DNA from: an uncultured Pirellulaceae bacterium
GTDB taxonomy: Bacteria; Planctomycetota; Planctomycetia; Pirellulales; Pirellulaceae
Reading direction: 5' to 3'
DNA: 32,298 bases
NCBI GenBank assembly: GCA_964607555.1
Contig: CAZSOG010000001.1
Coordinates: forward strand, 1 to 32,298
Part shown: positions 3,574 through 28,203 of the stretch, in pieces
Layout: each line of letters starts with the position of its first letter
How positions within the stretch are numbered: the first letter of the stretch is position 1
Notes under the pieces: model-generated
Seen by the model: the letters and a program-made list of their open reading frames with translations, nothing else
Told to the model about the DNA's origin: nothing
Database searches by the model: none
Made by a program: the position numbers and the translations under genes

Positions 3574-3700
3574 AGAGGCAGCAACGAGGCGGTTTCCTGA
3601 GGGCGATGGTCCGGTTCCTCGACGATGAGGAAGTCCATCGCACGTGTTGGCACCGTGATTTTGTTACAGCTTCTTGTACCATAACAGTCGGGCGGTAGTC

Positions 3701-7228: not shown

Positions 7229-7230
7229 AG

Positions 7231-8334: not shown

Positions 8335-8389
8335 CCCACCGAGGCACGATCGATGTCACACCGGCGCGGTCCTTGGATCAACCCAATCT

Positions 8390-9040: not shown

Positions 9041-9081
9041 AGGAACACACACCGTGCGGGTACCCCCGAAAAACGTAACAC

Positions 9082-9522
9082 ATGCATTGTGTGCCGCATC
9101 GAGTTGTCATGAAAGCAAAGTTCACCGAACTTGAATTGGAAGCCTACCTGGACGAGGCACTCGCGCCACCGGACATGGCGGCGATCGAGGCCGAATTGCG
9201 GCACTCGCACGAGTTGGTCGAACAACTCGCGGCAATTAATTCACGACGTGATGCCGGCGTGCATTCGCTCGGCGAGATCTGGCGCCGGCATCGCATGAGC
9301 TGTCCAAAGCGCGAACAACTTGGCAGCTTTCTTCTCGGCGTCCTCGAACAAGACGAGGCCGATTACATCCAGTTCCATGTGGACGTCGTGGCATGCCGCG
9401 CTTGCCATGCGAATTTGGAGGATCTGAAACGGCGCCAGGCTGAATCACAGGACTCAGTCGTCGTTCGTCGCCGCCGTTATTTTGATTCGAGTGCCGGCTA
9501 TCTCCGCCAGGATGAGACCTGA
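9082..9522 (+). CDS. Putative zinc-finger (zf-HC2/ZAS-like) anti-sigma factor, soluble
   Basis: It lies immediately downstream of the ECF sigma. The candidate metal ligands form a Cys...His...CxxC-His pattern: 'SCPKREQLGSFLLGVLEQDEADYIQFHVDVVACRACH'. There is no TM segment. ATG 9109 (MKAKF...) is an alternative start. Confidence 0.6.
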   Translation: MHCVPHRVVMKAKFTELELEAYLDEALAPPDMAAIEAELRHSHELVEQLAAINSRRDAGVHSLGEIWRRHRMSCPKREQLGSFLLGVLEQDEADYIQFHVDVVACRACHANLEDLKRRQAESQDSVVVRRRRYFDSSAGYLRQDET

Positions 9523-9611: not shown

Positions 9612-10502
9612 ATGACGCGAAGACTCGGCTTGGCAGTTGTCACTTCATTGTTTCTCTTGGTGCCGATCGGTGCCCATGCGGCAGCACCGCTGAAGGCGTT
9701 GATTGTGGATGGCCAAAATAACCACAATTGGCGTGAGACCACACCCATTTTGAAGCAGCTTCTGGAGCAGACCAAGTTGTTCACGGTCGATGTCGCGACG
9801 TCGCCGCCCAAGAACGCGGATATGAGTGGCTTCAAACCCTCGTTCGCGAAGTACGATGTCGTTGTCAGTAACTATAACGGCGACCCGTGGCCCGCGGCAA
9901 CAAATCAAGCACTGGTCCGCTTCGTCGCGGGTGGCGGTGGATTAGTGAGCTATCATGCGGCCGACAACGCTTTCCCGAAATGGGAAGAGTATAACAAGAT
10001 GATCGCGATCGGCGGCTGGGGTGGCCGGAACGAGGCCAGCGGCCCCTATCTGCGCTGGCGCGACGGGAAGGCTGTCCGCGTTCAGGAGCCGGGCAGGGGC
10101 GGCGGGCACGGCCCGCAACACCCATTTCAAATCGTCGTTCGAGATCCTGATCACCCCATCATGCGCGGCCTGCCGCCCGTCTTCATGCATGCCAGCGATG
10201 AACTTTACAGCTGGTTGCGTGGACCGGCGGAGAATGTCGATGTGCTTGCCACCGCCTTCTCCGATAAGAAATTCCGTGGTAGCGGTGAACACGAGCCGAT
10301 GCTCATGGCGATCAAGTATGGCAAGGGACGCGTGTTTCACACGACACTTGGCCATGCCAAGTCGCAATGCCATTGTGTCGCGTTCATTGTCACATTTCAG
10401 CGTGGCACTGAATGGGCCGCAACCGGCAAGGTGACGCTGCCGATTCCCGATGATTTTCCCGGTCCGGATGCTCCGGTCGTGCGACCCGATAGTCGTAACT
10501 GA
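9612..10502 (+). CDS. Secreted ThuA domain-containing protein
   Basis: AAGGA lies about 10 nt upstream. The signal peptide is 'LAVVTSLFLLVPIGAHAAAP'. ThuA-like blocks include 'ALIVDGQNNHNW', 'YDVVVSNYNGDPWP', 'FVAGGGGLVSYHAADNAF', 'DHPIMRGLP', 'DELY' and 'YGKGRVFHTTLGH'. Confidence 0.8.
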   Translation: MTRRLGLAVVTSLFLLVPIGAHAAAPLKALIVDGQNNHNWRETTPILKQLLEQTKLFTVDVATSPPKNADMSGFKPSFAKYDVVVSNYNGDPWPAATNQALVRFVAGGGGLVSYHAADNAFPKWEEYNKMIAIGGWGGRNEASGPYLRWRDGKAVRVQEPGRGGGHGPQHPFQIVVRDPDHPIMRGLPPVFMHASDELYSWLRGPAENVDVLATAFSDKKFRGSGEHEPMLMAIKYGKGRVFHTTLGHAKSQCHCVAFIVTFQRGTEWAATGKVTLPIPDDFPGPDAPVVRPDSRN

Positions 10503-10693
10503 AACATGGCGGAATTGCCACGCAATCGCGGTCGAATCGTCCCGCGTCGTTGGCGGTTTCAAAGGAAAGGTCGTGTTAAGAACGGTAATTGTGGTTGTGT
10601 TTCAACCGCTCCGATTCTACCGGTTTGTCCCGCCGCGAGACTGCGGTCGAACGTGGTTCCAGACCGGAAAAGGCGTTAGGGATTTCAACAGCG

Positions 10694-11614
10694 ATGATCA
10701 TGTTTGATGATGGCCAACCGGTGCCGGAAGATGAGGATCACCAGGATGCGGTTGATGAACTCAATCAGCAACTGCAAGTGGTATCGAACGCGTACAATGC
10801 GGCACCGGACCCCGAAATGGGCAATTTGTCGCCCGAGCAAGTCACGCACTTGATCTATGCGCCGTGGGGTGAGCCCGGTAGTCCAATCCAGTTCCACACC
10901 AATATGCCGCTAGCGGATCTTGATAAGAGCGAGTTATTCGTTTCCGTACGAACAATGTTGCTTGCCGTGGTGGAGCGTGGTGGTGTCAAAGCCACCGCGA
11001 GCAAGAATTTGACGCGTCGCTTCGTCTCGGAAATGATGGAGATCCTGTTGACCGAGGAGCAGCGGGAAGAAATCTACAAGTATCGGAAGACGATCAATGA
11101 AAAGGATGTCTGGCCGGTGCACGATGCACGTGTGGTTGCACAGGTTGCCGGCATGCTTCGACTCAACAAAGGGAAATTCGTTGTGCCTGCAAAGTGGACT
11201 TCGTTATTGACTCCCGAGCGGGCTGGTGAGCTGTTTATGCGACTCTTTAAGAAGCACTTCACGAAATCTAACTTGGCTTATTTCGATAACTTCCCCGAAG
11301 TACGTTCGATCCAGTCTTGTGTGGGCTATACGTTCTACCGATTGGGAATCGTCGCGACAGATTGGCACGACGTGGAGGATTTGCCCGTTGCAACGCTATT
11401 GCCTGCCGTGCGAATTGATATTGAGGACCAATTCGGTGGCCACCCATTCGTGACGGTGAACCGTCTTTATGTGTGGCGAATTCTCATGCCGTTGATCCGA
11501 TGGGGACTTCTGGAAGGTCGCTATGAACACCGGGAGAGCAAGCACGTCAAGTCGCTGGTGAGCATCCGCCCAACCCCATTGTATGGAAAGTTTTTTTGTT
11601 TTCACGTCGCGTGA
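10694..11614 (+). CDS. Hypothetical protein (306 aa), no recognised family
   Basis: The long ORF opens at 10589, and the first ATG is at 10694 (MIMFDDGQ...). It has an acidic N-terminus, no TM helix and no signal peptide. It appears less GC-rich by eye than neighbouring genes and is convergent with the PKS genes. Confidence 0.65.
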   Translation: MIMFDDGQPVPEDEDHQDAVDELNQQLQVVSNAYNAAPDPEMGNLSPEQVTHLIYAPWGEPGSPIQFHTNMPLADLDKSELFVSVRTMLLAVVERGGVKATASKNLTRRFVSEMMEILLTEEQREEIYKYRKTINEKDVWPVHDARVVAQVAGMLRLNKGKFVVPAKWTSLLTPERAGELFMRLFKKHFTKSNLAYFDNFPEVRSIQSCVGYTFYRLGIVATDWHDVEDLPVATLLPAVRIDIEDQFGGHPFVTVNRLYVWRILMPLIRWGLLEGRYEHRESKHVKSLVSIRPTPLYGKFFCFHVA

Positions 11615-11656
11615 AAGAACAAGACTCCGTTGCATGATGCCATCATGTTGGGAGGG

Positions 11657-14600
11657 CTATGCTTCGGCCCGAAATGCTAGTGCAGTGATGACTTGCGCGC
11701 CGGACGCCGTATGGGCGAGTATGTCCTGGCAATCCGGCTGGTATCGAATATGCATCGCGCCGTCTGGTTGCACATCAGTCAATTCGAATTGCCGTGGGCG
11801 CCCCTGCAATCCGGTGCCAAGCATTTTCGCGGCGGCTTCCTTGGCGCACCAGAGCCGCGTAGCCCACGCTTCCGACGGTTGGCTTTCGAGAAGCGGCGCC
11901 AGAATGGTCCGTTCACTTGGCGATGTGAAATCGTCCAGCACCCGCTGTGCCGTATTGTCCGTTGCGTCCTCGAAATCGATCCCGCACGGTTGTGCCGCAG
12001 CGATCGCCATCGCCATCCCGTCTGCATGCGCGATGCTGACCGACGGCAACTCCGAGATTCCGGAAATTGGTTCGACGTGGGGACAGCCGAATTCATCAGC
12101 GGAAATGCCGACTTCCACGGGGTGAAGCGGATGTGGGGCTGTCCGATCACGGAGCCACATCCGCACGACGTCCTTCGCTGCAATGCGCCCCGCGAGATAC
12201 TCGTGCCGGCGCTTTGTTGTCATCGACGCGAACGACTTGAGTTCAGCTGCTGTCAGGTAGAGTCGCGCGATCCATTGCGTGTTGCCTCGGTTTAACTCGC
12301 CACAGCTGAGTCGTGCCATCATGCCGTGGGCAGGCAGCCCGGGCACGGTATATGGCTGTGCGACCATCTTTTCGGCGGGCAGACGCTGAACTTCCATCAT
12401 GCGCCGTGAGTGCGGCAGGACAATGTCGGACCACCCGCGAATACGCATCCATGCGAATCCGTCGCCGTCCTGAACCTCAATATCCGCTGTGATGATGTGG
12501 GCCTTGCGATCATATCGCGTGACTTGAATACGCACCGGGATCTTCAGTCCGCGGGCCGGCGATGGGCGGTATAGCTCGAGCTTTTCAATACCGATCGGTA
12601 GGACGTGACAATCATGTGCTTGTGCCCAGCAACCAACCAACTGGCCGACGCCGTCAATGACCGCCGGGTCGGTCAGCAGTTCGGGGTTGCGGACCGATGC
12701 AAAGAGGTCATGGCGTGGCAACGTCGACAGCGTGCTGTCAAGTCCAGAATCGCCCAGCTTACCGAACGCGGTCACGGACTGAAAACGCGGCCCGTGAAAC
12801 GTATATCTTTCGCCATACAGCTGATCCCAACGGCACGGCCACGGACGCGTGCCGGCAATCGGCGCGAAAGTCAAGTCGACCTCCTGTTGGTATTGCGCAC
12901 CGAACAGCAGTGTCGCGCTGGCACAGAGTCGGTCCGCACAATGCACTCTGGCCTGGACACGGCGCGCCTCGCGATCTCCATCTCCGTTGACCCAACGCGC
13001 TTCGACACGGACATCGACCTCCGGTACATCCTCGAACCAGATCCAATGCAGGGCTTTCATGTCTTCAATACCGATAAGGCCCAATCCAGGCGCTAGATAA
13101 GCCGACGTTTCCGCCGCCAACTCCATGGTCATGACCATCGGTAGTACCGGCAGGCACTGGTCAAGTGGCTTATGGCCGACGGCGTTCACGAAATAATGGT
13201 CATGAAGATAGAGGTCCTCATCCAGCGTGAAGCGGCGCGTGACGACGATTTCCTGGCCAGGGATGAATCGATTGACGTTCCCGGTGAATGGAATCCGGGC
13301 CGGCGCGTCGGCGTGCTGATCCGGTTTCCGTCGATGGGGCGCCGGCTCCGCGAAATCGCATACGCGGTTTGGTGCGATCAACCACTCCAAACTCAAATGG
13401 ATCTGCTCGGGGGGCGGCGGACAATCGACCTGGGGCTCATGCAGGTCCAGGCGACGCACTTTGCGATAGTGATACAAGAGCGATGGATTGAAGTGAGCAC
13501 CGGATATGAACAGCGTGCCGACCAGAACATTGAGATGCGTGATCGGGTCTTGGGATTCGGCATCGATGTCAACCGACACCACGTCCTGGTCCGGCAAGTC
13601 GGCCTTCAGATTGCCGGCAATGCTGGCACAGCCCGCCTGGACAAAGATCCGCGCACCGTCATCATACATTTTCTGATTTGTTTGCCAAAAGCGGATTGGA
13701 TGATCCAGGTTCGCTGTGACCAGTTCACGGATGTTCCGATCATCTTTTGGAAACACGTCCGCGGCAATCGATGAATAGACCGGGAGCTTTGGAGGATGAA
13801 GTGCTGTCAGCCGCTGGCCAACGTACTGCTGGCGCAGGTGGCTCATGTGCGGCGTGTGTCCCGGAACGTATGGCAAAGTCACGGCCATGGTTCGTTGCCG
13901 ACGCAATTGATCGACGGCCGCTTGAATGGACTCGGTACTTCCGCCAAGCAGAACCTGTTTGTGGGAAACGTATGCCGCGACGTAAATATGTTCATTGACC
14001 GCTAGAAGCTGCTCCAATTGCGCCTCATCGAGTGTCGCGAATGCCATGCGACCCGGTATCTGCAAGGTCATGGGATCGAGCAGGGTTTGCCAAATACTCG
14101 GACGCACCACCGATTCGAAATCGACGGATTCCGCCACGGCGAGGGCCACCAGATCACCAAAGCTTTGACCCGCCACCATGTCCGGTCTCACGCCCAATGC
14201 TTGCAACAAAGTCCATCCAAGCCAGTTGCTCAATACGACGCCGATCCCGGACAGATTACGTTCCGACGCGGCAACCGAGAACGGAATCTGTTGTTGATCA
14301 ACCGCCGGCGGTGGCGCAAGTCGCAGCTTCAGTGATTCTTGCAGCGATGTGCGCAGCGTCGCTGGCGGATCGAGAACGCACGACAAGGGGACCGGGTCCT
14401 CGGGGTGCCCGTCCTTGGCCTCGAACTTGTCCAATTGTGCACGGAGTTCAGGGAAGCACATCGCCATTTGCAGCACGTGCTTCGGGTAGTTGCCGATCAG
14501 GCCGGGAATGGCCATGCCGGGGAACAAGATAGCGAGCTTGCCGCGCGGTTTCAAAGCGGTCCGGCTGAAATATACTTCGGCGCCCGAACTGTCGGGTGTT

Positions 14601-16300
14601 TCCTCCACGTCGACGCGTGCCGCCCAATCCGTGATCTGGCGAAGCAGATCGTCGGTATCGCGACTGATCAGTGCGAGTTTAACGGGCTGTGCGAAATCCA
14701 CTTCGGTCTGCAATGTGAAACAGACATCGGCCAGCCGTGCATCCGACTTGTCCCGTTCAAGAAAACCGCGAACCACGTCCAATTGGTCCCGCAGCAATTC
14801 GGTCGAAGCTGCGCTAAACAAAGCGACCTCGGTTGCCTGCTGGTGGGCGGAGTGTATCGGGCGTGCCAGGCAACTGCCGGCCGGCGTACCGACAGGTTCG
14901 GTGAACTCCTCCAGCACGACATGTGAATTGATTCCGCCGAACCCAAACGCACTGACCCCCGCGCGCCGCGGCGGGCCGGGGCTCGGGTGAATCCAGGGCC
15001 GCGCTTCCAGCGGCAGATAGAACGAAGTCTCGGCAAGCGCCGCGCGTGGCTCGTCACTGTTGAGTGTTGGTGGAATGACTTTGTGCGTCAGTGCCATGAC
15101 GGTGCGAATCAAAGACGCCATGCCGGCCGCCGGCATGGTGTGCCCAATCATGGACTTGACCGATCCAAGCGCACGCGCCGGCAGGTCGGCCGGTTTGAAA
15201 AACGATCGAATCGTCTCCAACTCAACGGGGTCGCCGGCGATCGTACCGGTCCCATGCGCTTCCAGGTAAGATACCGTGTCTGGGTCAACCCGCGCGTCGC
15301 GGTAGGCCGCTTGCAAAGCACGAATCTGACCCGACGATGACGGCATGAGCACGCTGGTCTCGCCGGCGTCGCTGGCGCTACCAACGCCCTTGATCACCGC
15401 GTAGATGCGATCGCCATTGGCTAATGCATCATGGAGTCGTTTCAACACGACCGTACCGGCGCCTTCGCCGAGCAGCAGCCCGTCAGCCCGTCGATCGAAT
15501 GGCCGAACGACTCCGTTTTTCGAGAGGGCCCGAAGGTGGGTGAAGACGAACCAGAAAGGTGGGATCTGGCACAAGTGGACGCCGGAGATGACCGCCATGT
15601 CACACTGTCGCCCGCGCAGCCGCGCCACGCCCTGCTCCAACGCGATCAGCGAGGAAGCACAGGCGGCATCGACAACATAGGCGACACCGCCCAGTTTCAT
15701 CCGGTTACTCATGCGGCTTGCCACGAGGTTCGGAATGCAGGTCGACAAGCTGTCCGGCGAGTTGGGTGGCAAGCATGATCTGAGCTGCGTTTCAATGTCA
15801 TCCAGTTCCGACGAATCGAGTTCCGGAAATCGCTGTCTCAAGAACGGCTTGACGCGGAACAACGAATCCACACGCAGAAACACCTCGGCCATCTTGGCGC
15901 TCAGGTACCCGCCGCGACCGACAATCGCGTCAGTTCGTTCCCGTATTGGGTCGTCATCATCAACGCCCGCATCCTTGAGTGCCGCGTCGGCAATATGCAG
16001 CAGCACGAACTGATCGGGATCCGCGTGTTGCAGGACATTTGGCATGATTCCGAAGCGGCGTGGATTGAACCCGATGTCGCGCGGTATGAAGCCACCACGA
16101 GTGCAGACAATCCGTACCTCGTGACCTTCGGGCAAGTTGTAAAACAGATCACTATTCCAGCGATCCGCGGGGACGTCGGAAATCGCGTCGACCTGATTGA
16201 CGTTGTTGGCCCAATAGCTGTCCAAATCGCGCGCGCCGGGAAAGACGCACGCCATCCCGATTACGGCAATGTCCCGATTTTCGGCAACCGGTCCGTTCAT
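11657..16300 (-). CDS. Iterative type I PKS subunit 2: KS - divergent AT - double-hotdog DH - Sfp-type PPTase (1547 aa)
   Basis: The start is set at ATG 16300, which forms an ATGA overlap with the upstream stop, because the KS begins right after it ('MNGPVAENRDIAVIGMACVFPG'). All positions here are aa numbers counted from that ATG.
- KS, aa 8-465: 'VVDAACASSL' (Cys214), 'EAHGTGT', 'GSVKSMIGH'.
- AT-like, aa 588-900: 'ILFPGMAIPG', 'VAGQSFGDL', 'GHTPHM'.
- DH, aa 1000-1300: 'LYLHDHYFVNAVGHKPL...P' and 'DPAVIDGVGQL'.
- PPTase, aa 1335-1547: 'YLAGRIAAKDV', 'SIAHADG', 'CGIDFE', 'WCAKEAAAKMLG'.
No ACP motif is present. Confidence 0.9.
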   Translation of the reverse strand: MNGPVAENRDIAVIGMACVFPGARDLDSYWANNVNQVDAISDVPADRWNSDLFYNLPEGHEVRIVCTRGGFIPRDIGFNPRRFGIMPNVLQHADPDQFVLLHIADAALKDAGVDDDDPIRERTDAIVGRGGYLSAKMAEVFLRVDSLFRVKPFLRQRFPELDSSELDDIETQLRSCLPPNSPDSLSTCIPNLVASRMSNRMKLGGVAYVVDAACASSLIALEQGVARLRGRQCDMAVISGVHLCQIPPFWFVFTHLRALSKNGVVRPFDRRADGLLLGEGAGTVVLKRLHDALANGDRIYAVIKGVGSASDAGETSVLMPSSSGQIRALQAAYRDARVDPDTVSYLEAHGTGTIAGDPVELETIRSFFKPADLPARALGSVKSMIGHTMPAAGMASLIRTVMALTHKVIPPTLNSDEPRAALAETSFYLPLEARPWIHPSPGPPRRAGVSAFGFGGINSHVVLEEFTEPVGTPAGSCLARPIHSAHQQATEVALFSAASTELLRDQLDVVRGFLERDKSDARLADVCFTLQTEVDFAQPVKLALISRDTDDLLRQITDWAARVDVEETPDSSGAEVYFSRTALKPRGKLAILFPGMAIPGLIGNYPKHVLQMAMCFPELRAQLDKFEAKDGHPEDPVPLSCVLDPPATLRTSLQESLKLRLAPPPAVDQQQIPFSVAASERNLSGIGVVLSNWLGWTLLQALGVRPDMVAGQSFGDLVALAVAESVDFESVVRPSIWQTLLDPMTLQIPGRMAFATLDEAQLEQLLAVNEHIYVAAYVSHKQVLLGGSTESIQAAVDQLRRQRTMAVTLPYVPGHTPHMSHLRQQYVGQRLTALHPPKLPVYSSIAADVFPKDDRNIRELVTANLDHPIRFWQTNQKMYDDGARIFVQAGCASIAGNLKADLPDQDVVSVDIDAESQDPITHLNVLVGTLFISGAHFNPSLLYHYRKVRRLDLHEPQVDCPPPPEQIHLSLEWLIAPNRVCDFAEPAPHRRKPDQHADAPARIPFTGNVNRFIPGQEIVVTRRFTLDEDLYLHDHYFVNAVGHKPLDQCLPVLPMVMTMELAAETSAYLAPGLGLIGIEDMKALHWIWFEDVPEVDVRVEARWVNGDGDREARRVQARVHCADRLCASATLLFGAQYQQEVDLTFAPIAGTRPWPCRWDQLYGERYTFHGPRFQSVTAFGKLGDSGLDSTLSTLPRHDLFASVRNPELLTDPAVIDGVGQLVGCWAQAHDCHVLPIGIEKLELYRPSPARGLKIPVRIQVTRYDRKAHIITADIEVQDGDGFAWMRIRGWSDIVLPHSRRMMEVQRLPAEKMVAQPYTVPGLPAHGMMARLSCGELNRGNTQWIARLYLTAAELKSFASMTTKRRHEYLAGRIAAKDVVRMWLRDRTAPHPLHPVEVGISADEFGCPHVEPISGISELPSVSIAHADGMAMAIAAAQPCGIDFEDATDNTAQRVLDDFTSPSERTILAPLLESQPSEAWATRLWCAKEAAAKMLGTGLQGRPRQFELTDVQPDGAMHIRYQPDCQDILAHTASGAQVITALAFRAEA

Positions 16301-19300
16301 GGTGACATACCCAGTCTGCGCTGCGCGATTTCGCGAATGCTGCAACCAACCACGACTTCGGCGTACTCGTCCTTCGGGAAATTCAGTTCCGCCAGGAATG
16401 CGTCGGCGCCCATGGCGGCGGGGATTACTTGAATCCGCATGGCCGCCCAGACGGAGGCAAGTGCGGGAGTCACCAAACCACGGTCCCAAGGGCCCCAGTT
16501 AATCGCGACGACCCGAGCGGGCCAGCGTGTATTGAGGTCATCCGCTAATTTGTTGAGGTACTCGTTGGCCGCGCAGTAGTCACATTGCCCCGGATTACCG
16601 AAACGCGCGGAGACCGACGAGAAGAAAACAAGAAACCGCAACGTTTCGACCCGCAAGTTCCGCGCGAGCACCTGCGCACCATCGATTTTTGTTCGGACGA
16701 CGTCGGTGATGGAGGACATCGTTTTGGATGAAATCAAACGATCATCGGTCACGCCCGCACCGTGAATAACGCCGTCAATGCGCCCATACTTGGCATAGAC
16801 CGCGTCGATCATGGCAGCGAACCGATCGGTATCGCGTACATCCACGGCATGGTACTCGACATCTGTTGCGTGCTGCTCAAGGTAACGCAGAGTCGCCTTC
16901 ACTTCCTGATCGGGAGTGGGACGCGGGGTACCCTTCCGGGTCCGTATCGCGTGGGTATGGTCGTCTGGAGGCAAGTCGTTGGGACGCGGGGATTCACTCG
17001 CGAGCGCGGACTCCTCCAACGATGTTCGACCAATCAAGATGAACCGGCAGTGGTATGTTTCCGCGATTCGTTTCACGACCTCGGCCGTTATCCCACGCGC
17101 GCCGCCGGTGGCCAGGATAACGGCGTTGCTATCGAGCAAGGTGGTCCGCCGCGCGTCGGAGTTCGGCGATGTCGGGCGCAGTTCCGGCGTCCAACGCCCG
17201 TGTTGTGTCAGTCCGACTTCCGTCGATGTATCCCCCGCCATCAGCTCCCTCAAAATGGAATCCATGAGCCACTGGGGGTCTGGATCAGGTTCCACATCGA
17301 TGTTCTTGACCAGCGTTCCCGGCCATTCGCAACCGACGCTTTTCATCAGACCGACCGAGACTGCCTGGGCAAGCGGCAGGTCGCGGCCGCCACCAATTCC
17401 AAGTTTTCCGCCCAGCGATGTGACATTGATCAGTTTGCCGCCACCTTGCGCCAGACTCCCGCGCAACTCGGACTCAAATTCGCGCAGTAGATGATACTGA
17501 CTTGCCATGAGATCGAGGGCCACGCCGGTATCATTCATGCCGGCGGTCGAGAACGGCTTGGACAAGGGCAGCAGGTTCAGCAGGCCGGCGATCTGAACTC
17601 TCTCGTCCCGCAACAAGCGATGTAGATGGGAAATCGATTCCGCCGAGGAAACGTCCGCCACGAATTGACTCGGCGCGATACGGCCCGTGTCATCGCCCGC
17701 GACGACATGGCACAATTTCGGTCCCGTGCCTCCAACGCTCGCCGACCACGCCATCGCCGCGTCCGATATCCGTCCGATCACAAGCAACGCATGGTCGCGG
17801 GGCCACCGCCACGCGGCGTTGTCCCCATGCTCCAACGGAGCCTCCACGGCCTGGACCACCAGTCGCTCGATTGGATCAACCGCCGTTGCCGCGCGATCCT
17901 CAAGAAGTCGTTGCGGTTCCCGGGCTTGTGATGGAACCTCCATGGCCTCGATGCGTTCGGTCTCGGACCCCGTACCGTGCCGATTCGTTCCAGCGTTCGC
18001 GATATAACGCGCACGCTCTTCCGCGTAGGCCTCCACGATATCGTGGATGGTCTTAAGATTCGTAAAAGTCATCAGCAATTCTTCATCACTGCGATCTTGA
18101 CGCATCATGAAGGAGCAATAATCAGTGAGCCCCGAGAAGATTTCGATCCGCTTGATTGAGTCTATGCCAAGGTCTGCTTCCATCAAAAGAGTTTCATCGA
18201 GCGTGTCTTCCGTATAGCCGGTCCGGTCGCTGATGAGGTCCAGGAGGACCCGGCGGAAACCTTCGACAGAGAGGATCGAGGACGGCGCGCCGCCCGTTGC
18301 TTCCCGGGAGACTTTAGTAGCTTCCAGCATTGATCCTGGGGCGTTTCCGGGGGCTGGGGATGCCTGGTTTCCATTGGGTGTTTTGCCATCTGGCACGGTC
18401 GACTGGATCGGTGGTAGCGTTGGCGCGGGTGGGACACGCAGCGGCATGAGTTGCTCTGGCGTCTTCGCCACGGTCGCTGCCGGATTGTGCCGCGCCGAAC
18501 CATTTCCATCCTGCAGGTAATCGAGATATCGTTCCTGCAATCGTAGAAACTGCTGGTGCGTTTCCTGTTGGCTTTGCTGCAGTTCAAGCCAGCACGCAAG
18601 ATTCTCTTGAATGGGATCCCCCGGTGTCCCCGCATGTGCCCAGCCGCCGCCGCGGACCGGAGACATCGGTTCGCTTATCGACGCATCGTTGGAAGCGGCG
18701 TTCGCGGACGGAACATTGCCGAAGTCGGCTTTCGATGGCGCTTCCATGTCTTCGGTCAATCCCGAGATCTCTCCGGCGCGACGTTCGATTCGTGATGGCT
18801 TGGATGCGTTGGGTTCTTGTTCAGCATTCATTTTGTGTCTCGATCGTTGCGGTGTTCCGTCGTCTGTATCGACCGTCACGGGCAGCGCCGAACGGTCGCT
18901 CGCCGCGCGCTCGCGCGGTACCTGCCGGCGCGCTCGCGCTCCGGAGAGTATCCAATGGGACTTGTTCGGCGCGTTGTTCAAGCGATCCAGGGCGATCGCT
19001 TCCTCAACCGACTGAATCGTGGGCGTGCGGTCGGCAAACCACGGTTCACAACGAACCGGAAGGCCAATCGCGAACGACTGCGCCAGAAGATGTGCCAATT
19101 GCGTGACGCCGTGTCGGCCGTCGATATCCAGAGCGAGTGTTTCGCAAGACGTGTCGTTCACGATATGACGAACGAAACTCGTCAACGTGGTGCCCGGTCC
19201 GACTTCGATGAAGACGCGTCCGCCGGCAGCCCAGATCGTGCGAACCTCTTCCGTGAAACGCACTCGTTCGGTCAATTGGCGGACCATCAGGGAACGGATA

Positions 19301-22300
19301 TCGCGGGCCCGATCCGGAAAGCGCGCCGCGGTAACGTTGCTAAAAATGGGAATCGATGGTGGCCGAATGTCAACGCGATTCATGTGGCCGGCGAACTCAT
19401 CTGCCGCCGGTTTGAGTTCAGTGGTGTGAAACGCCGCGGTCACGGCGAGTCGCCGCGCTCGGAGTCCAAGATCGGAGAACTTTCGCACGGCCTCGTCCAT
19501 GAGTTTCAAAGGCCCGCCGATCACGGTCTGGTTCGGCGTGTTCGCGTTGGCGATGGACAGCGGCGATCGCCACTGGCGCAGGTGTTCGCTGACCGTTTCT
19601 TCGCCGGCCATGACGACGGCCAAACCTCCCTTGCTCGATCGCGTCGTGTTGGCGACGATCGTGCCGCGTAACGCGGATAGCTCGACCGTTTGCCGGCGAG
19701 TGATGCACCCGGCCGCGTGCAATGCGACGAGTTCACCATAGCTGTGTCCCGCGACGACACCAGGACTCAAACCAAACCGGCGCAGCAGGTCGAGCGCGAA
19801 GAGGCAGGCCACACCCAACGCCGGTTGCGCCACCGTGGTCTCGTTCAGCGCATCCTGCTGTCGACGGCGGCTCGGTTCATCAAATGCGGGGATCGGAAAA
19901 ATGTAATCTGACAGTGGCCGGTGCAACGACCGGCGGAGCCACTGATCCGCGTCCGTGAAGAGCGTCAGGCCGGCTGGATACTGGAGCAGCAGGTCGCGCA
20001 GCATATTGCAACGCTGGGACCCCTGCCCAGGAAACAGGAAGCAGACGTCACGCTCGTTTACGGGTGGTGCTTCGCGATAATTCACGCCGTTGGATCGTGG
20101 TGGTACCGCCTCGCGCGATAAGCTGTCCAGCACAACCGTGATCTTTGTCCGCAAATCATCGACGTTTTCGGCGACGATTGCCAAACGGCATGTGCGTCGT
20201 TCGAGTTCCTTCGATGCGCGGTTCATCTCGCGATACAAACCGAGGGCCAGCGGTCCGATGTCCGGGTCTCGCCATTCGGCCACCCGCGTTTGAAACCGTC
20301 GTAGCGCCTCGACCAGCGGCGCGCGTTCGGCGGCAATCCAGAAGAACAGCTCGGTAGTCACCAGGCGTGGAGTGACGATCTGCGCGCCACAACCGTTGTC
20401 CTGGTACTCTTCCAGGACGGCATGGAAATTTGTTCCCCCGAAACCGAAGGCACTTACCGCGGCACGGCGCGGATGGTCGGCAGATCCGTGGATCCAGGGC
20501 CGCGGTTCCGTGTTGATACAGAGCGGCCCGTTCGAAAAATCAACGTGGCGATTCGGCACGGTGACATTGCCGGTTGGCGGTAGTGTTTTATGTTTGAGGG
20601 CAAGACAAGTCTTGATCAAACTGGCTAGTCCGGCCGCCGTTTTCGCGTGCCCAATCATCGATTTGACCGACCCGACGGCACAACGATTCTGGTCGGGACG
20701 CCGGTCAGTCATGATGGCAGCCAGTGCCTCGGCTTCGACGCGATCGCCGAGTGCCGTGCCGGTTCCGTGTGCCTCGACCAATCCGATGGTGGCCGGATCA
20801 ACGGCAGCATTCGCATACGCGCGCCGGAGGGTCTCGATCTGACCCGCGAGATCGGGGGCGGTCAGACTGCGGTTGCGCCCATCGCTGGCGGTGCCGATCC
20901 CACGGATCACGGCATGGATTTGATCTCCGTCGCGTTCGGCATCGGCGAGGCGCTTGAGCACGACCGCGCCAACGCCTTCCCCCAAGACGATTCCGTCCGC
21001 GGTATCGTCAAATGGGCACGGCTTTCCCCGAGGCGACAACGCAAACACCTTCGCAAAACTCATGAACTCGACTGGACTGTTCGTCGCGTCCGCGGCGCCG
21101 ACCAGCGCCGCGTCACAGGTTCCTGAGCGAAGCTGTTCGACGGCAATATGCAAGGCGGCAAGCGAGGCGGCGCAGGCCGCGTCCACGACAAAATTCGGTC
21201 CGCGTAAATCAAAGTGGTTCGAGACGCGACCGGCGACCATATTGTTCAGGAACCCGGGTAGCGAATCCTCCGTCCATGTCGGTAGCAGCCGATCGAGCGC
21301 GCGGATCACGCGGTCTTGCGTGTCGCATGGCAACGAATCGGATGCCCGCAGGTACTGCCGCAGCATGGTACGGAACCCGTACGCCATGCCCAGGTTGTGT
21401 GGCCCGCTGACCGCGAAGATCACGGACGTACGATCGCGGGGAAAGGGTCGATCGAAATACCCCGCATCCCGCAGTGCCATGCCGGCCACGTCGAGGGCAA
21501 TCAGTTGCACCGGCTCGATACTCAACATGCTCGCCGGCGGGATCCCATATGCCAACGGATTGAAAACGACTTCGTCCAGGAATGCACCCCACTTCGAGTA
21601 ACATTTGTCACGGTCGAAACGATCGGTGGTGAAGAACAGATCCCCATCCCAGCGCTCGGCCGGTATCTCGCGCACGGCGTTGAATTTGGCCAATATGTTG
21701 CGCCAATACTCGGCGGTACCACGGCATTCGGGGAACCGGCACGCCATCCCAATCACTGCCAGCGGTTCTGATTCGAGCATGCGACGCGTCGGTCGATGCG
21801 TGGCCGGCCGCAAGGAGGCGGTGCGTTTGGCGAACTGCTCGATCAGTTCACCGCTGGCTTCGCTGATCGTCTGATGCAGCTGTGCGATTGTTTGCGGTTC
21901 GCGCATGAGGGTTGCCGCGTCCCCGATCATGAACATGCCTTGTTCATGTTGCTGCTGACGTGCGACCGGAACCAGTGTGGGGTCGGGGTCGTCAGGCGTG
22001 TTGTCCTGGCGCGCAAGTCCTTTCGATGCCAGGCGTAACCGTCCCAAACAGAGCAATTCCAATTCCATCCGGATCTCATCCGCTGATTTTCCAGCTTGCA
22101 GCAGAGTGCGTCTTTGGGACTCGAATTCCTCCGCGAACGGCGTCTTGACGCAGCGCGAGGCGTGGCCGATCCCGGACTGCAACAGAACCGTTTCACTGCA
22201 ACGTAGCACTTGTTGCTGATAATCCGCCGTGATTGCACCGGTCGCCACGGCCTCCTCGGTTCCGATGTAGGCGCTGCCGAGCACGACCCCGACGTGCATG

Positions 22301-23889
22301 CCATGTTGAATCAATGGCGTGGCAACCAACGACACCATGGCAGCCGACAGGGCGTCATGAATCCCGCCGGCAAACAAGATTTCATATTCCGCCGGTTCCT
22401 TGATCTTCGCCTTCAAGAGGACATCAACAGCCGACGCCCACAACGCAAAACTACTGCGCGGCCCAACGTGGCCACCGCATTCGCGACCTTCCAAGACGAT
22501 ATGACGAACTCCCTGTTTGATCATCGCGTTCAGAATGCCGGGTGACGGCGCGTGGACATAGGTCTTGATCCCATGCTGCTGGAGTTTCGTGACCTGATCC
22601 GGCCTGCCGCCGGCCAGCAAGGCAAATGGTGGCCGCAACTCACGCACAACTTGCATCTGTGCGGACAAATATTCCGGCGGCAAGAATGCCAAGAGCCCCA
22701 CGCCCCATGGTTGTCCCTCCAGCCGCCTACGCGTTGCCCGCAGCAGGGTTTCGATCTCCGGCCGCTTCATCATGCCAAGGGCAAGAAACGGCAAGGCGCC
22801 GCCGCCGGCCACCGCGGCGCAAAACTCGGCACCGTCGCTCACACGGGTCATCGGTCCTTGAACGATTGGATAACGCGTTCCATTTCGTCGGGCCAGTGGC
22901 GCGGAGGGCGCCAACGGCAGGTGCCGTCGCGCCGCCACGGGCGTCTCGGCCAGCGCCGTCCGGTAGCGTTGAATAACGTGCCCGACCGTAATGCATTCGC
23001 GCGCCAATGAAGCGCTGAACGCGATATCTTGACCGGCAGGGAGCAGCGTCGGCCCTCTGGATCCCGCGTCTTGGGTCGCTGCCGACAATTGCATGCGCGC
23101 GAGCTCCGTGGACCAGTCGCCACCCAGGTCGCACGTGCGTCGGAGCTCGTTCAGTGCAGCTCGATTATGCCGCGCGAAGAACCGGTACGTACGATCCGCG
23201 TTCCCGATGTGCGTTGTCTCACTGCCATCGCACCGCGACAATGCCTGGATGTCGCGCGCCGCCAAAGGCGACTCGCGCGTAAGCCATAATTGTTCGCATA
23301 AGAGAACTCCCGTCGCGCCGGCCAATGTGGCAGCCGGTGCCGTGCACGGGTGTATTCCACCACGAATCCAATAGGGAATAGTCAGCATGCCGTGAACATG
23401 TTGCAGCAACATGAACGACGAGTGGTTGCCAACGCGTCCACCGGATTCGTTTCCTTTCAGCACGAGGCCGTCGAACCCGGCCGACTGCGCCAACAGTGCG
23501 TCGGTCGGACTGTAGGCCTCGACAAACACACGCTTGGCCACGTAACGTGCTCCGGTCAGAATCTCGGCGAGTGGTTGCCGGCGAAAGTCGATGCCCCCAA
23601 GTAATAGCACCGGCCAACGCGTCGTGGTCAAACCGCGCAAGCAACGTGGTGACCGGTCCCGTTGCTCGAGCATGTCCCAGTACGTACCCCACTCACCTCG
23701 ATCGCGCGCGGCGTGCGATAGTCGATCGATGGTTGCCTGCCTGACCGCACGAGAGGCGGCGAAGCCGAGATCGACCAACGCGACCGCACCCGCGCGCACA
23801 GCGGCAATCGCCAATCGCGCATCGCATACATGCGGCTGCGTAACAACCAACACAGGTTCGTTCAGACACGCTTGTTCGCCTTGGGCCAT
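16297..23889 (-). CDS. Iterative type I PKS subunit 1: NMO/ER-like (degenerate) - NMO/ER - KS - AT - ACP - KR (2530 aa)
   Basis: All positions here are aa numbers.
- Divergent NMO/TIM-barrel-like domain, aa 10-300: 'GFDGLVLKGNESGGRVG'.
- Canonical FabK/PfaD-type NMO/ER, aa 335-600: 'YPIVQGPMTRVSDG', 'LEGRECGGHVG'.
- KS, aa 707-1160: 'VVDAACAASL' (Cys906), 'EAHGTGT', 'GSVKSMIGH'.
- AT, aa 1283-1600: 'FPGQGSQ', 'GHSYGE', 'AAFHT'.
- Low-complexity linker, aa 1640-1870.
- ACP, about aa 1875-1950: 'DLGIDSIKRIE' (Ser1911).
- KR, aa 2020-2490: 'ILATGGARGIT', 'GQCDYCAAN'. Confidence 0.95.
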   Translation of the reverse strand: MAQGEQACLNEPVLVVTQPHVCDARLAIAAVRAGAVALVDLGFAASRAVRQATIDRLSHAARDRGEWGTYWDMLEQRDRSPRCLRGLTTTRWPVLLLGGIDFRRQPLAEILTGARYVAKRVFVEAYSPTDALLAQSAGFDGLVLKGNESGGRVGNHSSFMLLQHVHGMLTIPYWIRGGIHPCTAPAATLAGATGVLLCEQLWLTRESPLAARDIQALSRCDGSETTHIGNADRTYRFFARHNRAALNELRRTCDLGGDWSTELARMQLSAATQDAGSRGPTLLPAGQDIAFSASLARECITVGHVIQRYRTALAETPVAARRHLPLAPSAPLARRNGTRYPIVQGPMTRVSDGAEFCAAVAGGGALPFLALGMMKRPEIETLLRATRRRLEGQPWGVGLLAFLPPEYLSAQMQVVRELRPPFALLAGGRPDQVTKLQQHGIKTYVHAPSPGILNAMIKQGVRHIVLEGRECGGHVGPRSSFALWASAVDVLLKAKIKEPAEYEILFAGGIHDALSAAMVSLVATPLIQHGMHVGVVLGSAYIGTEEAVATGAITADYQQQVLRCSETVLLQSGIGHASRCVKTPFAEEFESQRRTLLQAGKSADEIRMELELLCLGRLRLASKGLARQDNTPDDPDPTLVPVARQQQHEQGMFMIGDAATLMREPQTIAQLHQTISEASGELIEQFAKRTASLRPATHRPTRRMLESEPLAVIGMACRFPECRGTAEYWRNILAKFNAVREIPAERWDGDLFFTTDRFDRDKCYSKWGAFLDEVVFNPLAYGIPPASMLSIEPVQLIALDVAGMALRDAGYFDRPFPRDRTSVIFAVSGPHNLGMAYGFRTMLRQYLRASDSLPCDTQDRVIRALDRLLPTWTEDSLPGFLNNMVAGRVSNHFDLRGPNFVVDAACAASLAALHIAVEQLRSGTCDAALVGAADATNSPVEFMSFAKVFALSPRGKPCPFDDTADGIVLGEGVGAVVLKRLADAERDGDQIHAVIRGIGTASDGRNRSLTAPDLAGQIETLRRAYANAAVDPATIGLVEAHGTGTALGDRVEAEALAAIMTDRRPDQNRCAVGSVKSMIGHAKTAAGLASLIKTCLALKHKTLPPTGNVTVPNRHVDFSNGPLCINTEPRPWIHGSADHPRRAAVSAFGFGGTNFHAVLEEYQDNGCGAQIVTPRLVTTELFFWIAAERAPLVEALRRFQTRVAEWRDPDIGPLALGLYREMNRASKELERRTCRLAIVAENVDDLRTKITVVLDSLSREAVPPRSNGVNYREAPPVNERDVCFLFPGQGSQRCNMLRDLLLQYPAGLTLFTDADQWLRRSLHRPLSDYIFPIPAFDEPSRRRQQDALNETTVAQPALGVACLFALDLLRRFGLSPGVVAGHSYGELVALHAAGCITRRQTVELSALRGTIVANTTRSSKGGLAVVMAGEETVSEHLRQWRSPLSIANANTPNQTVIGGPLKLMDEAVRKFSDLGLRARRLAVTAAFHTTELKPAADEFAGHMNRVDIRPPSIPIFSNVTAARFPDRARDIRSLMVRQLTERVRFTEEVRTIWAAGGRVFIEVGPGTTLTSFVRHIVNDTSCETLALDIDGRHGVTQLAHLLAQSFAIGLPVRCEPWFADRTPTIQSVEEAIALDRLNNAPNKSHWILSGARARRQVPRERAASDRSALPVTVDTDDGTPQRSRHKMNAEQEPNASKPSRIERRAGEISGLTEDMEAPSKADFGNVPSANAASNDASISEPMSPVRGGGWAHAGTPGDPIQENLACWLELQQSQQETHQQFLRLQERYLDYLQDGNGSARHNPAATVAKTPEQLMPLRVPPAPTLPPIQSTVPDGKTPNGNQASPAPGNAPGSMLEATKVSREATGGAPSSILSVEGFRRVLLDLISDRTGYTEDTLDETLLMEADLGIDSIKRIEIFSGLTDYCSFMMRQDRSDEELLMTFTNLKTIHDIVEAYAEERARYIANAGTNRHGTGSETERIEAMEVPSQAREPQRLLEDRAATAVDPIERLVVQAVEAPLEHGDNAAWRWPRDHALLVIGRISDAAMAWSASVGGTGPKLCHVVAGDDTGRIAPSQFVADVSSAESISHLHRLLRDERVQIAGLLNLLPLSKPFSTAGMNDTGVALDLMASQYHLLREFESELRGSLAQGGGKLINVTSLGGKLGIGGGRDLPLAQAVSVGLMKSVGCEWPGTLVKNIDVEPDPDPQWLMDSILRELMAGDTSTEVGLTQHGRWTPELRPTSPNSDARRTTLLDSNAVILATGGARGITAEVVKRIAETYHCRFILIGRTSLEESALASESPRPNDLPPDDHTHAIRTRKGTPRPTPDQEVKATLRYLEQHATDVEYHAVDVRDTDRFAAMIDAVYAKYGRIDGVIHGAGVTDDRLISSKTMSSITDVVRTKIDGAQVLARNLRVETLRFLVFFSSVSARFGNPGQCDYCAANEYLNKLADDLNTRWPARVVAINWGPWDRGLVTPALASVWAAMRIQVIPAAMGADAFLAELNFPKDEYAEVVVGCSIREIAQRRLGMSP

Positions 23890-23981: not shown

Positions 23982-24011
23982 ATTCTAACTACTCTGCGGC
24001 CTGCTGGCGAA
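23982..24011 (-). promoter_or_regulatory. Weak sigma-70-like promoter candidate upstream of the PKS genes
   Basis: The minus strand reads TTCGCC (24011-24006), an 18-nt spacer, then TAGAAT (23987-23982), about 95 nt upstream of the PKS1 ATG. This is pattern matching only, and promoter consensus in this lineage is uncertain. Confidence 0.2.
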
Positions 24012-24119: not shown

Positions 24120-25523
24120 CTACAACAGATGGCGCGCCTTGATATTCAGATACTGGTTAACAAGCGGCGCCGTCATGTCCTCGGGAAAAACATCCAACAC
24201 GAGAACGCCCTGGTGTTCCAGATCGGTGAGCACCTGATGACGCCAGTTGAGGATCTGCGCGGCGGCCGCCGCGCGATACAAGTCGTTGCCCTGGAGATTT
24301 GAAGTTGCCGCGGCGTCGAACAACTGCCGGTCGCGCAGCAGGATACCGAGTGGCAGATGACGGCGCGTCTGCAGGGTGAGATACTGTTGGATTTGAAGAC
24401 TGTTCACTTCATCGATCACGTTGCTGATCAAAACAACGAGCGATCGTTTGCGACAATGGGTCGCAAGGTGCAGAAAGGCTAAGTCATAGCGCGATTCAAC
24501 CAATTGCGGGAAACGGTCGAATGACGCGTGCAGGAGGCGGTTCATTTGATCCATGCCACCGCGCGGCGGAACAAACGTGTGAATCCGGTCCGAAAAAGAG
24601 ATCAAGCCGACCGAATCGCCTTGCTGCAGCGCGACGTAGGCCAACATTAACATGGCGTTCAACGCGTGGTCCAGCAGACTTAGTCCGGACGCTTCGTTGT
24701 TCATCATCCGTCCGCAATCGAGCAGGAAGACGATCCGTTGACTCTGGCTGGTCTGGAACTGTTTGACCGTCAGCTTGTTGCGCCGTGCCGTTGCGCGCCA
24801 GTCGATATGCTTGTAATTGTCGTCCGGGCTATAGTCGCGCAGCCGCTCAAAATCATGATCTTGCCCGACTTTGCGACTGCGGCGCACACCCAGCAAGCTT
24901 AGCCGATTGGTACGTGCCAAGACGGCGTATTCAGCCAACTGCTTCATATCGGGATAGACGTGTACTATCGAGCGGCACGGGCGTTCGATAAGGCGCTTCC
25001 AGAACCCCCAACGGCTACGCACCTGCAGGTAGACGCATTCCAGCACGAAAGCCCCGCGCCGACCGGCGCGTAGTTGGTAATAGGTTTCGCGCCGACTGCG
25101 GGCCGGCAGGAGAAAGGAGAACTGTGGTGGCCGAGCGGTAAAAGGGTCGGGACAATCATCACGCATGTGGACAAGAAACGCGCGTCGCCCGCGGTTGCTG
25201 ACACGTAGCTCGACGCGTTGTGGCTTCCCCAATGAAGCGATGCGGCCAACATGCCGCTCAACGTCGAAAACATGTCCGAAAGGAAGTGTCACCAGGTCGA
25301 TCAAGGCGAGCCCGACGACGATCATGTCCACGATCAACACGAGGTGGAGCGTTTCGGGCGCGAAGACCAGGAGTAATGAGAAGAGGCACGGCACAAGCAA
25401 GCAGAGCAGCAACATGGTGTGTGGGTATATCCGCCGGCGCGCGATGAGCCACAGCGGAACGGCAGCCAGTGCCGTCAGCAAGAACAGGTGTAACATGATC
25501 TCGCTCAGTACGTTGTGGATCAC
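24120..25523 (-). CDS. DUF58 domain-containing protein (vWA-like MoxR partner) with N-terminal TM helices
   Basis: The hallmark DUF58 block is 'GQDHDFERLRDYSPDDNYKHIDWRATARRNKLTVKQFQ...IVFLLDCGRMM'. About 3 TM helices sit at the N-terminus. The GTG start forms a GTGA overlap with the MoxR stop at 25520-25523, and ATG 25496 is an alternative. Confidence 0.9.
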   Translation of the reverse strand: MIHNVLSEIMLHLFLLTALAAVPLWLIARRRIYPHTMLLLCLLVPCLFSLLLVFAPETLHLVLIVDMIVVGLALIDLVTLPFGHVFDVERHVGRIASLGKPQRVELRVSNRGRRAFLVHMRDDCPDPFTARPPQFSFLLPARSRRETYYQLRAGRRGAFVLECVYLQVRSRWGFWKRLIERPCRSIVHVYPDMKQLAEYAVLARTNRLSLLGVRRSRKVGQDHDFERLRDYSPDDNYKHIDWRATARRNKLTVKQFQTSQSQRIVFLLDCGRMMNNEASGLSLLDHALNAMLMLAYVALQQGDSVGLISFSDRIHTFVPPRGGMDQMNRLLHASFDRFPQLVESRYDLAFLHLATHCRKRSLVVLISNVIDEVNSLQIQQYLTLQTRRHLPLGILLRDRQLFDAAATSNLQGNDLYRAAAAAQILNWRHQVLTDLEHQGVLVLDVFPEDMTAPLVNQYLNIKARHLL

Positions 25524-26827: not shown

Positions 26828-26839
26828 GAATGTGGTCGG

Positions 26840-28186: not shown

Positions 28187-28203
28187 TGGTGAGCTGAAGG
28201 GAA

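Follow-up and report, generated by a model that had tools for sequence, protein, structure and literature searches.

Introduction

Secondary lipid synthases have as their only known products the heterocyst glycolipids and the chains of the Azotobacter phenolic lipids (PMC13291983). Types M, N, O and P in the catalogue of Shulse & Allen (2011) are iterative type I fatty-acid/polyketide synthases (FAS/PKSs) of this group that carry a fused enoyl reductase (ER). Here, a pair of adjacent genes with this architecture is described from an uncultured Pirellulaceae bacterium of the phylum Planctomycetota. The pair lies on the minus strand of a stretch of 32,298 nucleotides (GenBank assembly GCA_964607555.1, contig CAZSOG010000001.1, positions 1 to 32,298 of the forward strand), which as a whole is called the window below, and encodes two large multidomain proteins, subunit 1 (P1) and subunit 2 (P2). 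The architecture was already catalogued in 2011 and is widespread; its planctomycete members are an uncharacterised branch with a distinctive second acyltransferase. On balance we favour the reading that the pair represents the ER-fused family (Types M/N/O/P) in a planctomycete and makes a long acyl chain.

In File S1 of Shulse & Allen (2011), Type M consists of a first gene encoding ER, ketosynthase (KS), malonyl acyltransferase (MAT), two acyl carrier proteins (ACPs) and ketoreductase (KR), written ER-KS-MAT-ACP2-KR, followed by a gene encoding KS, acyltransferase (AT) and phosphopantetheinyl transferase (PPTase), written KS-AT-PPTase, and by an ACP; it is recorded from Frankia, Renibacterium, Actinosynnema and Streptomyces avermitilis. 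The same layout is given for Chryseobacterium (Type N) and Dinoroseobacter (Type O). For Chitinophaga (Type N) the second gene is KS-PPTase, Gloeobacter (Type O) has ACP3 and Parvularcula (Type O) has ER-KS-MAT-ACP-KR plus KS-AT-PPTase, with a single ACP and no free-standing one. Type P is represented by Azotobacter vinelandii, in which ArsA is ER-KS-MAT-ACP-KR and ArsD is recorded only as 'PPTase'; only one ACP is encoded in this ars cluster, from which phenolic lipids receive their C22-C26 chain (Shulse & Allen, 2011). ArsA, which is the best-known protein of the ER-fused family and acts together with ArsD, provides acyl chains (C22-C26 or C23-C25 by source) to the type III PKSs ArsB and ArsC for the alkylresorcinols and alkylpyrones of the cysts. 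A paper of 2026 refers to 'fused pfaDA and pfaBC ... with PPTase' as an uncharacterised secondary lipid synthase resembling that of Renibacterium (PMC13291983). For the planctomycetes, a type III PKS operon is the sole biosynthetic gene cluster that has been studied in a targeted way, according to a 2025 review, and 'two monomodular PKSs' were noted in Rhodopirellula baltica in 2007, according to another.

Results and discussion

Gene pair and match to the 2011 catalogue

The two genes and their junction are as follows; the pseudo-ER is a degenerate ER-like domain and AT* is the second acyltransferase, both treated below, and DH stands for dehydratase.

16297..23889, minus strand: subunit 1 (P1), 2530 amino acids (aa), pseudoER-ER-KS-AT(malonyl)-ACP-KR, with PfaD-like and PfaA-like parts fused
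11657..16300, minus strand: subunit 2 (P2), 1547 aa from the ATG, KS-AT*-DH-PPTase
16297..16300, minus strand: ATGA stop/start overlap of P1 and P2, 4 nt, read in the sequence and also present in related contigs L002, L082 and L168

A first-pass annotation of this DNA had listed the two open reading frames (ORFs) with their ATGA overlap, the order of the domains and a set of motifs. Pfam and motif searches recovered all of these, and the domain inventory of both subunits was right. Within a single 4-nt ATGA, the junction, CCATGAACGG, holds the stop codon of P1 (TGA) and the start codon of P2 (ATG). This overlap recurs in the three relatives named above (in L168, 10004 is the end of gene 1 and 10001 the start of gene 2) and is consistent with translational coupling of the predicted subunits. 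A longer reading of P2 from a TTG start at 16489 is an alternative. Domain E-values as low as 1e-62 exclude chance for the gene pair. When P2 was compared with its homologue on contig L083 (~94% DNA identity), the ratio of nonsynonymous to synonymous substitution rates (dN/dS) was 0.22 over 1445 codons; the gene pair is under purifying selection. Across the pair the full catalytic residue set is present for priming, malonyl loading, two KSs, KR, DH and ER, together with a second Ser-His acyltransferase.

Judged by Pfam and motifs against File S1, gene 1 has the ER-KS-MAT-ACP(n)-KR layout of Types M/N/O, and gene 2, immediately downstream, has that of KS-AT-PPTase, with a PKS-type DH between AT and PPTase both here and in relatives. 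Common to the pair and these types are the adjacency of the genes, the domain order, the N-terminal ER of gene 1, which is of the flavin mononucleotide (FMN) type, and the C-terminal PPTase of gene 2. Every domain was matched by tblastn, in order, in Chryseobacterium and Streptomyces loci, which come from genera with entries in File S1. The window differs in its single ACP, as two or three are usual among the members. The planctomycete clade as a whole differs in the GQSxG motif of its second AT, which is GHSxG in the others, and in having neither a downstream free-standing ACP nor an alpha/beta-hydrolase gene; no planctomycete stands among Types M/N/O in the 2011 catalogue. The proposal of the first-pass annotation that the locus is a novel mixture of polyunsaturated fatty acid (PUFA) synthase and enediyne PKS (PKSE) logic is thus superseded: the same two-gene layout is that of Types M, N and O, an already described family of the kind that the annotation had itself allowed for.

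Subunit 1

The following domains were assigned to subunit 1.

22885..23889, minus strand: degenerate NMO/FabK-like TIM-barrel domain (pseudo-ER), residues 1-335, Arg152 in place of the catalytic His
21820..22884, minus strand: FMN-type enoyl reductase (FabK/PfaD type), residues 336-690, motifs QGPMT, ECGGH473VG and AGGIHD
20359..21768, minus strand: KS1, residues 708-1177, Cys of DAACAAS, EAHGTGT and SMIGH
19156..20040, minus strand: AT1, malonyl-type, residues 1284-1578, FPGQGSQ, GHS1383YG, Arg1408 and AFH1487
18010..18249, minus strand: single ACP, residues ~1881-1960, phosphopantetheine Ser1911 in DLGIDSIKR
16483..17121, minus strand: KR catalytic subdomain, residues 2257-2469, YCAAN

Pfam matches on P1 comprised NMO at 412-673 plus a second NMO stretch, KS at 708-1109, AT at 1284-1578 and KR at 2257-2469; a structural subdomain of the KR probably lies upstream of the catalytic one, from about residue 2010. 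AT1 also matched the fabD model TIGR00128 (177 bits). The ACP fell below the Pfam threshold (PP-binding, 13.4 bits), yet it is conserved in relatives at 32-61% identity (tblastn), and with one Ser motif and one weak PP-binding match the earlier count of a single ACP per pair stands.

The ER matched FabK structures in the PDB at E 5e-14, and His473 of its ECGGHVG motif is kept in 42 of 45 relatives. To judge from its sequence, the 335-aa domain in front of it is a degenerate paralogue of this neighbouring ER, in agreement with the earlier description of an N-terminal, degenerate NMO-like domain. The two were matched by hhalign with a probability of 99.8% (E 3e-28) and by BLASTP at 26% identity (E 2e-5), and the N-terminal domain gave a Pfam NMO match of its own (E 3.8e-7). 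At the position of the catalytic His of GGHVG it has Arg152 in the window and R, W, L, K or P across the family, and the QGPMT motif has also been lost. The domain was nevertheless found by tblastn in nearly all relatives. TIM-barrel ERs act as homo- or heterodimers (PMC13311796), and for this reason the pseudo-ER and the ER may form an intramolecular pseudo-dimer.

Subunit 2

Pfam matches on P2 were KS at 9-415, Acyl_transf_1 at 698-889, PS-DH at 1158-1289 and ACPS at 1438-1518, and the domains were assigned as follows.

15056..16276, minus strand: KS2, residues 9-415, Cys214 (DAACASS), His349 (EAHGTGT) and His387 (SMIGH)
13496..14569, minus strand: AT*, residues 578-935, PfaB-like, FPGMAIPG, Ser713 (GQSFG) and His815 (motif GHTPHM also located), no conserved malonyl-binding Arg
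12401..13288, minus strand: PKS-type double-hotdog dehydratase, residues ~1005-1300, LxDH1035, FHGPxF 1168-1173 and D1216xxxQ1220, Pfam PS-DH
11657..12283, minus strand: Sfp-type PPTase, residues ~1340-1547, G1440xD1442xE1444 and W1484CAKE1488, Pfam ACPS and 4PPT_N

Since all 56 relatives retain Cys214, His349 and His387, KS2 is by its residues an active KS and not a chain-length factor (CLF), as the first-pass annotation had maintained. The DH motifs LxDH1035, FHGPxF and D1216xxxQ are invariant or almost so among relatives, and the PPTase motifs are likewise conserved. The DH, in which the motif HxxxGxxxxP is also present, was detected by Pfam as PS-DH only, with no FabA-type domain in P2.

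The second AT had been described as degenerate on account of its departures from the usual motifs, and this view did not survive comparison. Both Ser713 and His815 are invariant in all 56 relatives, and an AlphaFold model of residues 578-935 (pLDDT 84.6, pTM 0.88) has a complete AT fold. A dead domain was rejected on the strength of the invariant Ser and His and of this confident predicted fold. The residue preceding the Ser is His in 45 and Gln in eight of the 56 relatives, the Gln set being essentially the planctomycete clade. Arg1408 of AT1, which binds the malonyl carboxylate, aligns with Gln738 of AT*, and no Arg is conserved at this position. The hallmarks of PfaB, for which a role in terminal long-chain acyl transfer is described, are a Ser-His dyad, substitution of the His of GHSxG and a missing Arg (PMC12895367, 2026). 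AT* has the same three traits, and the earlier suggestion that it could act as an off-loading acyltransferase is accordingly a plausible one. When the model was submitted to Foldseek, TM scores of 0.7-0.77 were obtained to PKS ATs, FabD, the avermectin loading AT and the acyl hydrolase PksD; since these score alike, the fold does not tell whether AT* belongs with PfaB or with acyl hydrolases.

A downstream alpha/beta-hydrolase gene was present in 23 of 47 loci with GHSxG and in one of 20 with a non-His residue in the second AT (Fisher p 6e-4). It is only suggestive from this pattern that the Gln variant of AT* took over the release step, and the correlation is not independent evidence because the split tracks clade boundaries.

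Distribution and phylogeny

An initial genome scan by generic KS motifs drew in many unrelated PKSs and was filtered by domain order. The first-pass annotation had proposed a search for the same two-gene architecture in other genomes and a record of what flanks it; by domain-by-domain tblastn the same order (pseudoER-ER-KS-AT-ACP-KR, then KS-AT-DH-PPTase) was found, with similarity detectable for each domain, in 44 of the 81 genome loci; at least eight phyla are represented. The flanks were recorded (see below). Carriers include Pedobacter, Chryseobacterium, Streptomyces, Bryobacteraceae, Brocadia, Obscuribacterales and Kofleriaceae, and the loci came from Bacteroidota, Actinomycetota, Acidobacteriota, Brocadia, Obscuribacterales plus cyanobacteria, Proteobacteria, Myxococcota and others. 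A Frankia contig (L070) covers gene 2 and, of gene 1, just the KR end. For P2, more than 120 full-length relatives with 38-48% identity were found, and those with names are mostly from metagenome-assembled genomes (MAGs) of Gemmataceae, Pirellulales and Planctomycetaceae. Searched against 1.84 billion proteins, a profile of the C-terminal hotdog and PPTase regions matched 943 representative clusters (E<=1e-30), including true stand-alone DH-PPTase proteins with lengths of about 570-600 aa (P0134, P0142 and P0188).

In a neighbour-joining tree of KS domains, those that follow an ER (KS1) formed one trans-phylum clade, sister to the KSs of cyanobacterial KS-AT-ACP-KR genes without an ER, which we take to be HglE-like. 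The KSs that precede a DH (KS2) formed a second, separate clade with a phylum-level topology that mirrors that of the KS1 clade. The pair is therefore not a chimera of recent origin but old and inherited together. Where one gene ends and the next begins varies: the KR has a gene of its own in contigs L001, L084, L085 and L086, as does the pseudoER-ER didomain in L168 (2304-4220), and all parts are fused in the window, L002, L082 and L167. These variable boundaries and the stand-alone DH-PPTase proteins indicate that the modules have been recombined by fission and fusion.

As a separate observation, the same pseudoER-ER-KS-AT-ACP-KR plus KS-AT-DH-PPTase pair is present in a MAG of the anammox bacterium Candidatus Brocadia (L009, 2876-15819).

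Comparison with PUFA synthases and enediyne PKSs

The likeness to the PUFA synthase PfaABCDE extends to a PfaA-like KS-MAT-ACP-KR, a PfaD-like ER of the FabK type, a DH on the second KS-containing subunit and a non-malonyl Ser-His AT as in PfaB. The best NCBIfam model for P1 was that of PfaA (TIGR02813, 926.8 bits), under its cut-off of 1010.1. The window pair differs from PfaABCDE in that ER and PPTase are fused into the megasynthases and in its ACP, CLF and DH features: tandem ACPs, at least four of which are a Pfa trait, are replaced by the single ACP; after KS2 a linker and then the AT follow, with no second KS-like domain detected by Pfam, so that there is no KS-CLF didomain; and the DH is not a FabA-type DH/isomerase.

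With the enediyne PKSEs (SgcE, CalE8 and DynE8) the pair shares a presumably iterative operation and the order of a DH followed by an integrated C-terminal PPTase. A PKSE is, however, a single polypeptide of the order KS-AT-ACP-KR-DH-PPTase without ER or second KS-AT, and the window has two chains with both. The specific PKSE affinity assumed in the first-pass annotation did not appear: the DynE8 AT was matched only at E 1.2e-3, DynE8, its KS included, was outside the top 60 PDB matches for either protein, and enediyne kinship was set aside after these PDB sequence searches gave no specific signal. Nor does the window encode a PKSE-type thioesterase.

The idea of a new hybrid of the two systems that makes a polyene or polyunsaturated product draws on the PfaA-like KS-AT, the PfaD/FabK-type ER and the PKSE-like C-terminal DH-PPTase order. 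We regard it as very improbable in view of the points just given and of an architecture that is old and widespread. With CLF, FabA-type DH, tandem ACPs and PKSE affinity all missing, the product is unlikely to be a PUFA, a polyene or an enediyne-type compound, and the polyene named earlier as a likely product is also disfavoured by the combination of FMN-type ER, KR and PKS-type DH.

Genomic context and possible fates of the chain

For the context, the 28 different contigs nearest to the window were examined; in almost all of them a segment of the DH or PPTase shares 36% identity or more with it. In 22 of the 28, exporter genes and/or glycosyltransferase genes of families GT1/GT4 lie within 8 kb downstream. 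The exporter sets consist either of a membrane-fusion protein (MFP), an ABC ATPase and two FtsX-type permeases, or of a LolA-like protein with ABC and FtsX components. In L001 (14889-20802), L084, L085 and L086, the MFP, the ABC ATPase, two FtsX/MacB-type permeases and one or two GT1 genes come just after the synthase; L099, L102, L106, L111, L113 and L158 have the LolA-like protein, ABC/FtsX and/or GT4, and conserved unknowns of about 415, 457 and 642 aa. The exporters belong to the MacB/LolCDE/DevBCA class. In loci of other phyla the recurrent neighbours are an alpha/beta hydrolase (34 loci), GT1 (28), a small ACP (13), a phosphodiesterase-family protein (13) and a condensation-like protein (12).

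The nearest relatives of the window (L083/L087, L167, L168, L089, L094 and L105) have no exporter or glycosyltransferase genes within 8-10 kb, and the closest relatives are also without the other recurrent neighbours (alpha/beta hydrolase, small ACP, phosphodiesterase-family and condensation-like). DNA identity to L083/L087 is 94-96%, and protein identity is 48% to L167 and 45% to L168. The downstream flank is common to the window and L083; the flanks of L082 and L167 differ. Searches of the window's flanking ORFs of at least 80 aa gave no match to a thioesterase, reductase, condensation or tailoring domain, which upholds the earlier statement that no obvious release or tailoring gene is present. 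With no partner genes beside the window or its nearest relatives, the pair is taken to be stand-alone in this sub-lineage.

One fate to be considered is an envelope glycolipid similar to the heterocyst glycolipids: the pair would supply its aglycone, and a glycosyltransferase and a MacB/Dev-class exporter would be encoded elsewhere in the genome. This is favoured by the exporter and glycosyltransferase genes directly downstream in the 22 contigs, by the sister relationship of KS1 to the ER-less cyanobacterial genes assumed to be HglE-like and by the recurrence of GT1 across other phyla. On the other side, the window and the nearest relatives listed above lack such genes; the relatives' exporter is of the same class as DevBCA but scores under the Dev family cut-offs (DevB, 62 against 129; DevA, 197 against 296); these genes have not been connected with a lipid of this kind; and the window differs from the heterocyst system in having no HglC-type KS-CLF-AT, no ACP-TE/TR and no HglT/DevBCA-like accessory genes. 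For the pair in the window we hold this fate to be possible but doubtful.

Another fate is suggested by Type P: a long acyl-ACP could be handed, as in the ArsA/ArsD system, to a type III PKS encoded elsewhere and yield alkylresorcinol or alkylpyrone lipids, and no release enzyme would then be needed. The subunit 1 layout is identical to that of ArsA, single ACP included, the PPTase is on the partner protein in both systems, and ArsA itself is described as a supplier of long acyl chains to ArsB and ArsC. An alkylresorcinol-making type III PKS occurs in ~70% of described planctomycete species (PMC10896814). The two ars genes, however, flank two type III PKS genes in their operon, and no chalcone-synthase-type (type III PKS) domain was found in any flanking ORF of the window; subunit 2 has an active KS and an AT in addition to the PPTase that is recorded for ArsD. 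Type III PKSs are also missing from the recurrent neighbour families labelled in about 100 related loci (hydrolase, glycosyltransferase, ACP, short-chain dehydrogenase/reductase, exporter, phosphodiesterase, condensation-like and methyltransferase), and the planctomycete type III PKS operons that have been described hold a methyltransferase and an oxidoreductase but no FAS-like genes (PMC10896814). Transfer to a type III PKS is therefore considered unlikely.

Proposed function

For the favoured reading, a planctomycete ER-fused secondary lipid synthase that makes a long acyl chain, the following sequence of events is proposed. The C-terminal PPTase of subunit 2 would prime the single ACP of subunit 1, and AT1 would load malonyl units. 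The enzyme would work iteratively: the two active ketosynthases would share the rounds of elongation, presumably divided by chain length, and KR, the PKS-type DH of subunit 2 and the FMN-type ER would reduce most beta-carbons, with the pseudo-ER as the structural partner of the active ER in the putative pseudo-dimer. This would yield a long acyl-ACP that is largely saturated and possibly hydroxylated in part; such a chain is likelier than a PUFA or polyene because the DH is PKS-type and not FabA-type and there is no CLF. AT* may then free the ACP of the completed long chain, either by transfer or by hydrolysis. For most planctomycete relatives, glycosylation and export of the product are probable, since a MacB-class exporter and glycosyltransferases adjoin the synthase there; in the sub-lineage of the window any such partners would not be adjacent.

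Several points weigh against this reading. No product has been reported for Types M/N/O or for planctomycete members, and chain length and oxidation pattern are deduced from the domains alone. The flanking ORFs of the window include neither an exporter nor a glycosyltransferase, and the free-standing ACP gene given for Types M/N/O is absent from the window and from planctomycete-like loci. AT* is no nearer to any one AT subclass by sequence or by fold, its top matches being ordinary PKS ATs and FabD, so the term 'PfaB-like' denotes a likeness in key residues and not a demonstrated relationship to PfaB. Likewise, the presumed homology to ArsA/ArsD follows from architecture and the 2011 classification and not from direct alignment.

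A more far-reaching version, which takes up the GQSxG of the second AT in the planctomycete clade and the lack of a partner hydrolase and of a free ACP there, may be put forward tentatively. The planctomycete synthase could be fully self-contained, priming itself, building a very long and possibly partly hydroxylated chain and releasing it through its own PfaB-like AT. Its product would be an undescribed envelope lipid that in most planctomycetes is glycosylated and then carried by a MacB-class exporter of its own to the outer membrane, a non-cyanobacterial counterpart of the heterocyst glycolipids.

Other features of the window

The remaining features around the gene pair are as follows.

23982..24010, minus strand: weak sigma-70-like promoter match within the 230-nt gap upstream of subunit 1
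24120-31899, minus strand, upstream of the pair on the same strand: DUF58/VWA, AAA_3 MoxR ATPase, DUF4350, DUF4129, unknown, SpoIIM-like and RDD genes
10492-11727: ~1 kb between the ThuA gene and the P2 stop without a counterpart in L083
10589-11614, plus strand: ORF of 341 aa within this segment, weak DUF6933 match
3674-9522, plus strand: FHA protein, Ser/Thr kinase, 369-aa unknown, extracytoplasmic function (ECF) sigma factor (planctomycete PF07638 type) and 146-aa unknown

The promoter match agrees with the consensus at nine of 12 positions, with 0.3 such sites expected by chance, and is a consensus match only. In the MoxR operon, the ORFs at 26840-28879 and 28204-29166 overlap by ~675 nt, and one of the two starts has probably been mis-set. 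ThuA is also encoded on the plus-strand side of the window. At the place of the ~1-kb segment L083 has a gap of 132 bp and is otherwise 94-96% identical; the segment has no clear terminal repeats and was not found near the synthase in the other loci examined. The signalling block at 3674-9522 is also conserved beside the synthase in L083, and its 146-aa protein is possibly an anti-sigma factor.

Biological significance

Since their listing in 2011, the ER-fused Types M, N and O have remained orphans, and their planctomycete branch is large, conserved and often tied to an exporter and glycosyltransferases. The window reveals no new kind of enzyme; it holds a compact, fully fused two-gene version of the synthase that is convenient for heterologous expression. 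Identification of the planctomycete product would test the PfaB-like AT as a release enzyme and would add an envelope lipid to a phylum in which the cell envelope is still debated.

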